The notes: generated from the sequence alone by a model not told the origin. 64,000 nucleotides of DNA from Candidatus Peribacteria bacterium (GCA_023245865.1 JAHFJN010000001.1:486722-550721), one strand, 5' to 3'. Counted from the first letter of the stretch, positions 57,734 through 60,744 are shown. A program made the numbers and translations.

Positions 57734-57809
57734 GGGGCTGTAGCTCAGTTGGTAGAGCGCCTGCTTTGCAAGCAGGAGGTCAGGGGTTCGAATCCCCTCA
57801 GCTCCACCA
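57734..57809 (+). tRNA. tRNA-Ala (anticodon UGC)
   Basis: Acceptor GGGGCTG/CAGCTCC with G3:U70, anticodon loop UUUGCAA, T-loop TTCGAAT, encoded CCA. Confidence 0.95.
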
Positions 57810-57846
57810 TGACAACTATGCACACTTTGATCTAGTTTGATCAGAA

Positions 57847-57869
57847 AGCGCCACTTGGCGCTTTTTTGT
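57847..57869 (+). terminator. rho-independent terminator after tRNA-Ala
   Basis: AGCGCC/GGCGCT stem followed by TTTTTTGTT. Confidence 0.7.
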
Positions 57870-58067
57870 TGCACTTTGAACAGACTGCACAACTTTGCGC
57901 GACTTTGCATACTCATCGGTTTAAGTCCCTCTAGCTCGACCATTCTTTGTTGGGAACAAGTCTACTAACATCATTTGCTTTCATGCTTCAGGCGAAGCAT
58001 GAATGTCCTGAAACTTGCAAATCAAACACAAGTGATTAAACTTGCAGTTAATTCCTCGTTTTGCTCT

Positions 58068-58343
58068 ATGGCCAAATCTACAACGAAAAAAGTTTTGAAG
58101 GCATTGCTCTATATAGCAATAGGATTGGGTGAGGTTTTTGTTATTTTTATGCTGTTGTCTTTAATAGGTAATTTCCTTGGTCGTCCTCTGGGGTTCGGTT
58201 CTGTCGCCTTAGTTGATCCAACTGATCCGACCCATCAGACCTTTGCGAAAGGGATCTTTGAACATCCATTACTTCCATCGCTGATTTTCGGGGCGATTAC
58301 TTATTTTGTTGTTAAGTTCTTCAGAAAAAACAAAAACGCATAA
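58068..58343 (+). CDS. small membrane protein
   Basis: MAKSTTKKVLKALLYIAIGLGEVFVIFMLLSLIG... has two or three TM helices. Alternative upstream starts at 57975 and 57999. Confidence 0.5.
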   Translation: MAKSTTKKVLKALLYIAIGLGEVFVIFMLLSLIGNFLGRPLGFGSVALVDPTDPTHQTFAKGIFEHPLLPSLIFGAITYFVVKFFRKNKNA

Positions 58344-58447
58344 CGCGAAATCGTTTCAATTCTATTCTGCTCGACCATTCTTTCTCTCGAACCAGTCCAG
58401 TCCACCTGGTTTCTTTAGTATCTCAGTCGATCAAGTGTTCACGCACT

Positions 58448-58609
58448 ATGCCCCCAGACTTCAGAGACAAGTTACCTGAGAAATGGAGAAACTACGATTT
58501 TACCAATGCGATTGGGTTAATGTTGCTGATGAAAGAAATTCAGGATCAGGAACCACTGGATGATCCTAGTGTTCTGAAGATCGATGACGATGGGACGAGA
58601 CTATATTAG
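58448..58609 (+). CDS. possible small acidic protein (53 aa)
   Basis: ATG...TAG ORF found by hand; below the ORF-track length cut-off. Confidence 0.3.
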   Translation: MPPDFRDKLPEKWRNYDFTNAIGLMLLMKEIQDQEPLDDPSVLKIDDDGTRLY

Positions 58610-58616
58610 GGACCTC

Positions 58617-59312
58617 TTACTCCTGGAGATATTTACATAGTTCAATAGCTAAGTTTGTTAACCGACATTGATGGGCAAGTCTTACGCCAGACCTGTCACT
58701 GTGGTCCCTATCACCTATGAGTTTCTTTTTGACAAGATCATCTTCATAAAAGTCCACAATCCCAGCCGATACTAAGTTCTGCGATGCGCCAGCAATGTAG
58801 TCTGGCCATTGATCAGCCCCTCGGCTGCTCTTTTCTACTTCTTCGCGCGTGCGAGTTTTGAAGAGCCGATACGCTGTACCGAGAATAATCAGTTCCTCTG
58901 CATTCAACGTCCTACAAATGCGGAGCAACTGCTGCGGCCGTGGATTTGCCCACTCGGACGAAGGAGATGCTGCCGCCTTCAGAAAAATCTTTTTCATCGC
59001 CTCCGTCCTCTTCTGGTCGGGCTTATCCTTATCCAGTGAATCGAACATTTCCACACGGCACTCTGCAGCTTGTTCGGTTTCTGCGTACTCCGGCTTGATT
59101 TTTCCTTCCTGAACCATTCTCTGCCATTCTCCAGCAACAGCACGAAACCCTCCTTCCTTTTGTTGGTTTTGAATTATTCTGGATACAGTCTTAACCAAGT
59201 CATCTTTTCCTGATGTCAGTAGAGTTGTGAGGCCTGGGACCAGACTGTTCATCGTAAAATCCTTAGCCCGTTGAGTTAGCTTTCCGGCCTTCGGTATCTT
59301 TACTTTAGACAC
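58617..59312 (-). CDS. hypothetical protein, downstream partner of the DUF4145 gene
   Basis: 231-aa ORF, 30 nt downstream of the preceding gene on the same strand. No family recognised. Confidence 0.6.
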   Translation of the reverse strand: MSKVKIPKAGKLTQRAKDFTMNSLVPGLTTLLTSGKDDLVKTVSRIIQNQQKEGGFRAVAGEWQRMVQEGKIKPEYAETEQAAECRVEMFDSLDKDKPDQKRTEAMKKIFLKAAASPSSEWANPRPQQLLRICRTLNAEELIILGTAYRLFKTRTREEVEKSSRGADQWPDYIAGASQNLVSAGIVDFYEDDLVKKKLIGDRDHSDRSGVRLAHQCRLTNLAIELCKYLQE

Positions 59313-59342
59313 TGCTGCATCTTAGCATTTTTTGATCTTTTT

Positions 59343-59933
59343 TCACGCGCTCTCTCGTTGAGTCTTTAGGTGTTCTGCATTCTGTGGCACTTCATAAAAC
59401 TCATGAATCAAGAGTCTTAGAAATGACAATATCTTCTCTGCACTCTCCTTCGTGGCATTTTGCAACTGCTCGTCATCAGGATGAGCACTGAGATTCCCGT
59501 ATTCTCGAATTTCCTCTGCCACCGGATGAAATGCCTTCCGCAATATGTTTTTCTTTATCGCCCAGTCAATGGCATCAACAAGGTTACGCTTCGTGCATCC
59601 CTGCTCCTTAAGACATCTTTGTAAAACCCTGCGACTCATCATCATCGATGCCTTGTACGAGCCAGCATCGAGACATGTTCCCGCTTCATGAAATTCATCT
59701 CGAATTGGTTGTGAAATATTAATGGCAGAATCAATTTCATAATGGCCGTTTGGGAACATTCTTACAAAGACTCCTGTCCTGCCATCGTGAACACGCAGCA
59801 TCAATTTACGACATTCTTGATTGTTGCATCTGAGAATCTTCCAATTTTCGAGAAATGAAGAACCGTTCCATTCAGGATTTGTCATCACATGGGCTGTGCC
59901 GCAGTTTGGACATTTATCAACAACCTCTGACAT
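59343..59933 (-). CDS. Zn-ribbon / DUF4145-domain protein
   Basis: N-terminal CPNCG...CNNQEC ribbon. C-terminal ...GSYKASMMMSRRVLQ...IREYGNLSAHPDD... resembles DUF4145. Confidence 0.65.
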   Translation of the reverse strand: MSEVVDKCPNCGTAHVMTNPEWNGSSFLENWKILRCNNQECRKLMLRVHDGRTGVFVRMFPNGHYEIDSAINISQPIRDEFHEAGTCLDAGSYKASMMMSRRVLQRCLKEQGCTKRNLVDAIDWAIKKNILRKAFHPVAEEIREYGNLSAHPDDEQLQNATKESAEKILSFLRLLIHEFYEVPQNAEHLKTQRESA

Positions 59934-59991
59934 GTTTTGAGTTTACCAGACAGGCTTTCCTCAGCCCAACTTTTGGAATATAGTCGAGGTT

Positions 59992-60372
59992 ATGGAACAA
60001 AAGCCTAAAAAGAAGAATCAATGGTTTGGCAAAATTGAGAGCAGAGAAGATGCCCTCAAAGTTATCAAAGATAGTTCGAATGGTTTCTACGTTATTGCGG
60101 CCATTCAGGCTGGTATTGGTGTGTTTCTTGCTCCTTCAATGATACTGGATGGAGTAATCTATGCTGTTCTAGGCTTCCTATTAAGAAAATTTAACAGCCG
60201 TGTTGTAGCAGTTCTCCTACTACTCTTTAGTGCCTTATCTGTATTTGCAACAGCAAGTAATCAGTTTGGTCGAGGTGGCACAGGAGGTAGCAATATAGTT
60301 CTTGCTGTGATTATCCTTTGGGCTGCCGTTCGTGCTGTACAAGCCACATTCAAACTGCCCAAGTTGAAATAG
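59992..60372 (+). CDS. small membrane protein (126 aa)
   Basis: Three hydrophobic helices after a basic N-terminus. Confidence 0.55.
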   Translation: MEQKPKKKNQWFGKIESREDALKVIKDSSNGFYVIAAIQAGIGVFLAPSMILDGVIYAVLGFLLRKFNSRVVAVLLLLFSALSVFATASNQFGRGGTGGSNIVLAVIILWAAVRAVQATFKLPKLK

Positions 60373-60744
60373 GGAAAAGTTCCAAATCGTTCCCCACAGC
60401 TCATTGACGGCATACATGTTTTCATAGTGTAAGAGCACATTCCATCGCCTGTGGGTTCTTAAGAATAGATCTGACAAAATCCAGTGAATTCCTCAGTGCC
60501 AAGAGCATTTCTGATAGAGTAAGTGCATCCACTTTCAGACGTCTGTCGAGTTCCAAATCGTTCCCTACAGCTCCACCATTCGTCCTTCGACTGTGCTCAG
60601 GATGACATTATTTGCTCGCTCATGGTAGCCAACCGTCAGCCGTCGCCTCAGGGCTATGGCCGACAAGTAGTCAGGAAATCGTACGTGAAAGGTCCGCCTC
60701 CGCTCGCTATCGCGAGGCTACGGTGGACAACCTCCTGCGGAGGT

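Follow-up and report, generated by a model that had tools for sequence, protein, structure and literature searches.

A family of modular elements without an integrase of their own at the 3' end of tRNA-Ala genes in candidate phyla radiation bacteria, with cargo of predicted defence function

We analysed a stretch of 64,000 nucleotides from a Candidatus Peribacteria bacterium (GCA_023245865.1, JAHFJN010000001.1:486722-550721; this whole stretch is called the window below), which holds at the 3' end of a tRNA-Ala gene an island that is a composite copy of an element family sharing the modules S, B and R. Searches with ARAGORN and Rfam located tRNA-Ala(UGC) at 57734-57809 (+; Rfam tRNA, 79 bits), whose 3' end GCTCCACCA is the left att-type core, and tRNA-Cys(GCA) at 60745-60819 (-), which is the right border of the variable region. 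Both tRNA 3' ends point into the intervening 2.9-kb stretch, and a permissive Rfam search of positions 56000-62000 returned these two tRNAs only, so that the direct repeats r1 to r4 described below are not tRNA-like genes. The island copy itself occupies 57810-60578, between the CCA of tRNA-Ala and the end of r4. An earlier reading made without database searches (the sequence-only reading) had described a lower-GC stretch ending just before a convergent tRNA-Cys, and both points agree with what we found, the GC content being 0.444 in the island and 0.537 in the rest of the window and tRNA-Cys lying on the minus strand at the position given above.

The left end of the island is module S (57810-57912, +), which begins at the base after the CCA of tRNA-Ala and is 88-92% identical in L018, L021, L014, L019, L028 and L032 (L numbers designate the loci compared). 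As read from the sequence, it holds a terminator-like hairpin, AAAGCGCCACTTGGCGCTTTTTTG, together with ACTTTG-type repeats; a consensus terminator scan did not list this hairpin. Two leaders of the same repeat family (D1) follow, each headed by a repeat. The first, made of r1 and the leader of open reading frame (ORF) A (57915-57995, +), cross-matches the r2 leaders of L031 and L032 and precedes ORF A (58068-58343, +; from the ORF list), a small membrane protein of 91 aa with only two relatives (89% and 74% identity), both in the same setting of S and r1 on one side and r2 and B on the other. The second, made of r2 and the ORF B leader (58350-58447, +), is kept before ORF B in L018, L020, L021, L031 and L032. 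ORF B (58448-58609, +) encodes a conserved element protein of 53 aa, related to 27 protein clusters at 65-85% identity and with 15 invariant residues; its AlphaFold model (predicted local distance difference test, pLDDT, 76) yielded no fold match in the PDB. The 90% cluster of P0008, a 52-aa relative of ORF B, also lists the 307-aa LpxC-like protein P0033, evidently an error of the cluster table.

The right end of the element is module R (60378-60578, +), a unit of 201 nt made of r3, a conserved middle and r4, which runs into the core GCTCCACCA (60570-60578). In eight of nine loci the module is exactly 201 nt long with zero indels, its identity across loci is 72-85% as a single unit, and conservation ends sharply at the CCA of GCTCCACCA. 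On its minus strand, ORF R (60422-60577) is a frame running through r4 (..GGAVGNDLEL..AMECALTL*), with its stop just before r3 and an uncertain start. The frame is open in all eight loci compared and its stop is conserved, and pairwise differences fall at codon positions 1, 2 and 3 in numbers of 233, 245 and 431, so ORF R looks like a coding sequence; the product was modelled as a single long helix. We also considered a split gene of the Sulfolobus spindle-shaped virus (SSV) type, in which the minus strand of S would complete ORF R beyond the att site, and rejected it on finding 1-nt indels in S and an in-frame stop in L014. The sequence-only reading had taken the segments at the two ends of the island as an empty 120 bp and an empty 160 bp; they are instead the conserved module S with its tRNA terminator hairpin and the conserved 201-nt module R with its coding-like minus-strand ORF and, judged by comparison across loci, they are the most conserved parts of the island.

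Three further ORFs lie between ORF B and module R. ORF C (58617-59312, -) encodes a 231-aa cargo protein of no recognisable family, with zero matches in Pfam, PADLOC, PHROGs, NCBIfam and PDB sequences. ORF D (59343-59933, -) has a Cys4 zinc ribbon followed by DUF4145 (Pfam DUF4145 2.5e-13, above the cut-off; PADLOC PD-T7-4 1e-6; phrog_1305 3e-27), with the zinc-ribbon cysteines at C8, C11, C36 and C41 and an R143-x7-H151 motif, both read from the sequence. The RAZR/PD-T7-4 family consists of abortive-infection HEPN RNases with an N-terminal Cys4 zinc ribbon and a C-terminal DUF4145 (PMC13017515). ORF D shares with it the Cys4 ribbon, the DUF4145 (HEPN) domain with R-x7-H and a length of about 200 aa, and differs in its weak PADLOC score (1e-6) and in its host among the candidate phyla radiation (CPR); it is a protein of RAZR-like architecture and a putative abortive-infection HEPN RNase. 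ORF D is followed on the same strand by the 231-aa ORF C, whereas the system in the RAZR paper is named as one protein (PMC13017515). The two genes had been taken for a DUF4145 pair, which does not hold, as the domain was found in ORF D only and ORF C matches nothing. The last cargo gene, ORF E (59992-60372, +; from the ORF list), encodes a membrane protein of 126 aa with sub-threshold family matches only.

Within the island, a repeat finder paired r1 (57915-57962) with r2 (58350-58397) at 73% over 48 nt, including an exact 15-mer (GCTCGACCATTCTTT), and r3 (60378-60402) with r4 (60549-60573) at 24 of 25 positions, in keeping with the near-identity already reported for the last two repeats. To score their likeness to the tRNA, we compared the repeats with the last 33 nt of tRNA-Ala, using 400 Markov shuffles of the 2.9-kb stretch as the null. 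The best score was that of r4 (15), followed by r1 (14); among the shuffles, a best score of at least 15 had a probability of 0.005 and the second-best never reached 14 (n=400). Chance-level similarity, which the sequence-only reading had named as the result that would overturn it, is thus not what r4 and r1 show; its description of all the repeats as degenerate copies of the tRNA 3' end stands for these two and fails for r2 and r3, which on their sequences count only as paralogues or partners of r1 and r4. The repeat r4 holds a 12-nt exact match to the tRNA 3' end (CAGCTCCACCAT) and is shaped like an attR site, with an element arm, the core CAGCTCCACCA and then flank. The 64 kb contain 5 copies of the motif GCTCSACCAT where 0.39 would be expected, and 4 of these are inside the island on the plus strand; the fifth, GCTCGACCAT at 61716-61725 (-), lies just upstream of the lipoprotein gene, has no tRNA-like arm and is probably accidental. 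The core GCTCCACCA corresponds to the 3' strand of the acceptor stem plus ACCA and is the sole sequence common to all right ends and the three tRNAs.

The head of r1 (GGTTTAAGTCCCTCTAGCTCGACCA) is tRNA-like, and its best fit is to the tRNA-Ala(CGC) of L014, whose 3' end (GGTTTAAGTCCCCTCAGCTCCACCA) gives a score of 18, above the 13 of the window's own tRNA-Ala. The core of both r1 and r2 carries substitutions (GCTCGACCA). Each of the two repeats heads a leader of about 81 nt, r1 before ORF A and r2 before ORF B, and the leaders cross-match among the window, L031 and L032 over 81 nt. Because r1 best fits a CGC-type tRNA and the leaders cross-match in this way, r1 and r2 are, on sequence comparison, heads of paralogous leaders rather than scars of two integrations at this tRNA.

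Related loci were retrieved by a protein search with ORF B, and the S, B and R modules were found to recur in L014 (two elements in tandem), L018, L019, L020, L021, L027, L028, L031 and L032, yielding a total of 11 elements including that of the window, with sizes of 1.4-3.8 kb. The tRNA-Ala isoacceptor is UGC in the window, L018 and L021, CGC in L014 and L020, and GGC in L032; L032 is colinear with the window at 81% from the tRNA through S, r1, ORF A and r2 to ORF B. The comparison of these sequences thus shows that the family exists, that its boundaries are exact (S starts after the CCA and R ends at GCTCCACCA) and that all three tRNA-Ala isoacceptors are used. The chromosomal contexts are mutually unrelated and include Trx/PGI, Obg, SelR/HSP20 and tRNA-Arg/aldo-keto reductase. 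Identity between the window and its relatives is 88-90% for S, 77-78% for B and 78-85% for R, whereas the flanking gyrA, PGI and Trx DNA is 59-69% identical to that of L012, L018 and L021 (59-61% for the PGI protein), and gyrA DNA is 69% identical where the non-coding S reaches 88-92%. As the modules are more alike than the genes that flank them, we infer that they move between lineages.

Several loci showed variations on this arrangement. In L028, two sequences resembling tRNA-Ala, the first before S (878-992) and the second right after R (3146-3300), carry some 60-110 nt inserted behind the D-loop (GGGCTGTAGCTCAGTTGG..hairpin..AGGTCAGGGGTTCGA); ARAGORN called neither of them, and each may be an interrupted tRNA or a pseudogene. 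At 481-520, L027 has an r1-type site that forms an imperfect palindrome, GGTTTAAATCCCT..AGGGATTTAAA (GGTTTAAATCCCT-TCAGCTCGACCTGC-AGGGATTTAAATT), and in L014 the sequence CAGCTCGAGCTG is followed, upstream of ORF B, by an inverted T-arm-like sequence; both sites show the arrangement of a recombinase core site. An ORF of 89-115 aa lies between S and ORF B in L020 (7651-7920) and L021 (7042-7389), with 75% identity between the two, and is the only cargo-slot protein common to elements besides ORF A.

Cargo occupies two slots, from S to B and from B to R, and its content differs in each copy. We found a Mrr-type nuclease in L014, AbiJ in L018, GmrSD with an EcoRI-type methylase and an SDH/ClpP-type protease in L019, EcoRV with a D12 methylase and an S24 peptidase in L027, a protein with a weak SieB match in L021, and in the window the RAZR-like protein plus three ORFs of no known family; many further cargo ORFs across the elements are likewise of no known family. 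By their family matches the cargo genes thus appear mostly defence-like or anti-phage. When 39 proteins encoded in the elements and beside them were compared all against all, only one related pair emerged, and no hidden cargo protein common to the elements was found among these 39 proteins.

Scans of genomes and metagenomes with PGI returned only L012 and a short contig without the tRNA. The PGI of L012, a locus from an uncultured Candidatus Peribacteria metagenome-assembled genome, is 61% identical to that of the window, which accordingly stems from a Peribacteria-like CPR bacterium. L012 has tRNA-Ala and tRNA-Cys 500 bp apart and no island; its order is Trx, a small membrane protein, tRNA-Ala, 500 bp, tRNA-Cys and lipoprotein, with no Fic and no RelB gene. 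L018 and L021 are syntenic with the window and carry islands at the 3' end of tRNA-Ala with other cargo (AbiJ and the weak SieB-like protein), so the comparison with relatives that had been proposed as a check of the locus yielded both an unoccupied site and alternative cargo. Orientations differ among these loci: in L012, L018 and L021 tRNA-Ala has its 3' end towards the membrane and Trx genes, whereas in the window it is turned round together with its island, and tRNA-Cys points one way in L012 and the window and the other way in L018 and L021, which indicates that small inversions recur around tRNA-Ala and tRNA-Cys.

Tandem copies were also observed. In L014 two elements stand in a row, the first R abutting the second S (...CAGCTCCACCA-TGACAACTATGC), and beyond the second R lies an 18-nt fragment identical to the tRNA 3' end; L027 has the same R-to-S junction. 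Another contig from the window's samples (1827 nt, from a second strain, at a depth similar to that of the window genome) carries in order an ORF B relative, 1.3 kb of unlike cargo, and r3-like and r4-like sites spaced as in the window, with S following after about 100 nt. Tandem R-core-S junctions therefore occur, and exist as stable tandems in other genomes; such a junction is the expected product of an attP or circular form or of tandem integration.

We consider it probable that these elements form an att-bounded, integrase-less family resembling cis-mobilizable elements (CIMEs) or satellites, targeting the GCTCCACCA of tRNA-Ala and moved by a recombinase that is provided in trans. The attL core would be the tRNA-Ala 3' end and the attR core r4, with r3 a second copy of the element arm inside the fixed end module R. 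Since r1 best fits a CGC-type 3' end, the piece that carries it would derive from a tRNA-Ala(CGC)-type site and would have been formed elsewhere. Elements would insert and accrete by site-specific recombination at GCTCCACCA, with the recombinase provided by a helper element or the host, their cargo would be swapped between copies via the shared modules, and the local inversions would likewise be the work of this trans-supplied site-specific recombinase; we infer both the recombinase in trans and any excision of the window copy. Like other tRNA-associated islands, the element lies at a tRNA 3' end, has a repeat at its far boundary and varies in occupancy; it has no integrase of its own. Of the proposal that the locus records repeated integrations and decay at one att site, the hotspot part is borne out by the empty L012, the other cargo of L018 and L021, the low GC and the attR-like r4, and the decay part is not, since modules conserved in 11 elements and at three isoacceptors look maintained rather than rotting. 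A bolder version is that the S-B-R elements are self-standing mobile defence islets of CPR bacteria, free of any recombinase gene, in which a host-encoded or unrecognised recombinase is guided by R, ORF B and ORF R to the GCTCCACCA of any tRNA-Ala, making them a platform for anti-phage exchange across tiny-genome lineages; we hold this version to be rather unlikely.

We searched for the enzyme among the proteins encoded at these loci. No integrase domain was detected with Pfam in the island ORFs and no recombinase in ten window ORFs of 260-440 aa, which upholds the earlier statement that the locus has no integrase, and no recombinase domain was found in any of the 11 elements. Two of three window ORFs of unknown family in this integrase-size set had no PDB sequence match. 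Among the scanned ORFs the only enzyme with tyrosine-recombinase-like chemistry is a bacterial type IB topoisomerase (27607-28647, +; Topoisom_I 3e-37 plus Top1B_N_bact). In L020, a block at 1044-7272 comprises ORFs of 425, 148 and 97 aa, a Toprim primase-like protein and a large serine recombinase of 587 aa, and ends on a tRNA-Phe (7144-7218, -) next to the tRNA-Ala that bears the S-B-R element. The genes of the large serine recombinase and the Toprim protein abut tRNA-Phe and not the tRNA-Ala element; the block is probably a separate element at the neighbouring tRNA-Phe.

Several observations weigh against movement of the family by a trans-supplied recombinase. Neither a helper element nor a recombinase for this island was found, and a scan of IMG/VR viral contigs for r3/r4, the middle of R, S and ORF B returned zero matches. 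Among assembler contigs we found neither the empty-site joint of 57809 to 60579 nor a circular junction of the window island. The core common to all copies is only 9 nt long, r2 and r3 score 10 against the tRNA 3' end, which is chance level, and ORF R has no conserved start codon, with gene callers placing its start in the flank beyond r4. The ORF B search biases the sample of loci towards carriers of ORF B, and elements that lack this gene, a helper perhaps among them, would have escaped it. No tRNA lies within 16 kb of the S, B and R modules of L019, and in L024 a relative of ORF B sits inside a methylase operon without S or R. This relative, on a Parcubacteria contig (416-7770), is a 55-aa protein of 69% identity whose gene closes an operon that includes an N6/N4 methylase, and its neighbours are a HATPase, a C5 methylase and a PD-(D/E)XK gene; from this setting, the role of ORF B may be tied to restriction or defence genes rather than to integration.

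The alternative that survives best is that the islands are dead remnants, scars of integrase-bearing elements since lost (CIMEs in the strict sense), whose modules are kept by vertical descent and by selection on ORF B, ORF R and the terminator. This would fit an integrase being found in no copy, the core substitutions of r1 and r2 (GCTCGACCA), and metagenomes in which the depth of the island equals that of its flanks and no excision joint appears among the contigs. It is at odds with the presence of the same modules at three different tRNA-Ala genes in unrelated contexts, with the identity of the non-coding S (88-92%, against 69% for gyrA DNA), with a module R of exactly 201 nt in 8 of 9 copies and with tandem junctions in several genomes, and the integrase-bearing parent that it calls for was not seen among the 11 elements; we judge it unlikely.

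Less likely again, in our view, is a hotspot of homologous recombination, at which S, B and R would be resident anchors and cargo would be swapped after DNA uptake without a site-specific recombinase. CPR bacteria carry DNA-uptake genes, cargo differs between copies while S, B and R stay, homology breaks at module edges (for example at 57880, 57909, 57937 and 58508), and no recombinase was found. Such a hotspot leaves unexplained how the scaffold came to lie at three tRNA-Ala isoacceptors in unrelated contexts, why its right end stops exactly at GCTCCACCA, and whence the R-core-S tandems and the displaced 18-nt tRNA fragment arose.

An integron-like cassette array, in which r1 to r4 would be the cassette sites of a dedicated recombinase encoded elsewhere, had been offered as a second possibility by the sequence-only reading. 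ORF A and ORF B are each preceded by a paralogous leader with a tRNA-like head, L027 has an imperfectly palindromic r1-type site (GGTTTAAATCCCT..AGGGATTTAAA) and cargo varies in two slots, all of which speak for such an array. No intI-like gene was found near any copy, however, no site separates ORFs C, D and E from one another or most of the other cargo genes, r1 and r2 of the window are not palindromic, and r3 and r4 belong to one fixed 201-nt unit and do not separate cassettes. With no intI and no attC-type site after each gene in the window, the proposal is not borne out for this locus, and we regard an integron-like array as improbable, though cassettes may be exchanged in some looser fashion. 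That the repeats are unrelated to the tRNA and resemble it by chance, as the chance-level scores of r2 and r3 and the seemingly accidental GCTCGACCAT at 61716-61725 (-) might suggest, is refuted by the scores of r4 and r1 above those of the shuffles, by four core matches on one strand within 2.8 kb where 0.39 are expected in 64 kb, by the fixed 201-nt R, and by the recurrence of the modules with the same sites conserved in 10 other loci.

Among known systems, the closest to the family are CIMEs and the tandem accretion of ICEs (integrative conjugative elements) and IMEs (integrative mobilizable elements) at tRNA genes, for instance ICESt1/CIME of Streptococcus thermophilus and the islands at tRNA-Lys in S. 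agalactiae (PMC5704250). CIMEs likewise are bounded by attL and attR, have no genes for integration or transfer, sit at a tRNA 3' end and occur in tandem with related elements (PMC5704250). They differ in being by definition decayed from a known ICE or IME (PMC5704250), and here no integrase-bearing parent was seen in the 11 elements or in IMG/VR; the ends of the present element are long conserved modules (S, and an R of 201 nt that contains a small ORF and an internal repeat), accompanied by a conserved 53-aa gene, and its hosts are CPR bacteria with no conjugation genes nearby. Because no ICE or IME parent is known, the element is not a CIME in the strict sense. The tycheposons and tRNA-flanked islands of Prochlorococcus (bioRxiv 10.1101/2020.12.28.424599) resemble it in their streamlined genomes, in the position of islands next to tRNA genes, in serial integrations that push older elements inward and leave partial tRNA copies between elements, in tandem junctions, and in cargo for defence or adaptation. 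Tycheposons, however, encode a replication module together with a recombinase of the tyrosine or large serine type (bioRxiv 10.1101/2020.12.28.424599), neither of which is present in any copy here, and the present family is confined to tRNA-Ala, of which it uses all three isoacceptors, and has in B and R modules without counterpart in tycheposons. With both of these missing, the element is not a tycheposon, and it is not an integron because it has neither intI nor attC.

Integrative mobile elements exploiting Xer (IMEXs), such as the CTX-phi/TLC arrays, are integrated by the host XerCD at dif. They too lack an integrase of their own and form tandem arrays between short repeated sites while the recombinase is encoded elsewhere; here the target is a tRNA 3' end and not dif, and no dif-like site was recognised (the host dif and xer lie outside the window). 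P2-like and P4-like prophages and satellites have variable defence hotspots between conserved genes, and share with the present family conserved flanks (here B and R) around a slot in which unrelated anti-phage genes are exchanged. Those hotspots sit in complete phages or satellites with integrases and capsid or replication genes, whereas the element described here is little beyond the hotspot.

The genomes of CPR bacteria are, to our knowledge, very small and poor in recognised mobile elements and in known defence systems, and their routes of gene exchange are largely unknown. A literature search for islands at tRNA genes in CPR bacteria (Patescibacteria) found no description, which is weak evidence of absence. 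If the proposed reading of a trans-mobilized family is true, a widely shared, integrase-free scaffold docking at every tRNA-Ala isoacceptor, with another anti-phage gene in each genome, would be one route for the flow of defence genes in CPR bacteria. Its variable slots would be a source of candidate defence genes, such as ORF C of the window and ORFs of 281, 323 and 387 aa elsewhere, with the scaffold serving as a simple handle for mining slot ORFs, and the R-core-S junction together with tRNA-Ala would provide a defined substrate for seeking the missing recombinase.

The contigs with identical island proteins (L001-L011) proved to be one strain, 100% identical, and the gene differences among them were discarded as differences of gene calling only. 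Several of the same-strain contigs stop at 57803, 57834/57839, 60747 or 60771, and in Logan assemblies the island forms its own contig of 2909 nt at a depth equal to that of its flanks, a sign of branching in the assembly graph at the borders of the island. The locus was without coverage in the metatranscriptomes of the same study.

Two accessory genes flank the tRNA pair on its outer sides. A SoFic-like Fic protein is encoded on the 5' side of tRNA-Ala (56521-57579, -; Pfam Fic 7.5e-15; PADLOC SoFic 8e-41), and a RelB-family antitoxin without a partner adjoins tRNA-Cys (60829-61077, -; Pfam RelB 1.3e-9). In the synteny comparison the Fic gene is missing from L012, L018 and L021, and the interval between tRNA-Cys and the lipoprotein gene, which holds RelB in the window, has no ORF in L012 and none called in L018. 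Since L012, L018 and L021 have neither Fic nor the orphan RelB, the variable region extends beyond the island, over roughly 56512-61125.

Between r4 and tRNA-Cys, the RNA structure of 60579-60744 was not above that of shuffles (z about -1). The sequence that directly follows r4 (60579-60627, +; TTCGTCCTTCGACTGTGCTCAGGATGACA...) forms a hairpin by RNA folding. An IMG/VR search with a 19-mer of it gave one match, in L030, which has no tRNA or other similarity and was taken as chance. We also considered this sequence as the end of a larger helper element and dropped that idea, as it is a short hairpin that follows other tRNAs too. The same TTCGTCCTTCGACTGTGCTCAGGATGACA hairpin lies directly 3' of the CCA of two other tRNA genes in other genomes from the same samples, on two Logan contigs (14 kb and 16 kb) that each start with a tRNA 3' end followed by the TTCGTCCTTCGACTGTGCTCAGGATGACA sequence, and it may be a repetitive extragenic palindrome (REP)-like or terminator element tied to tRNA ends.

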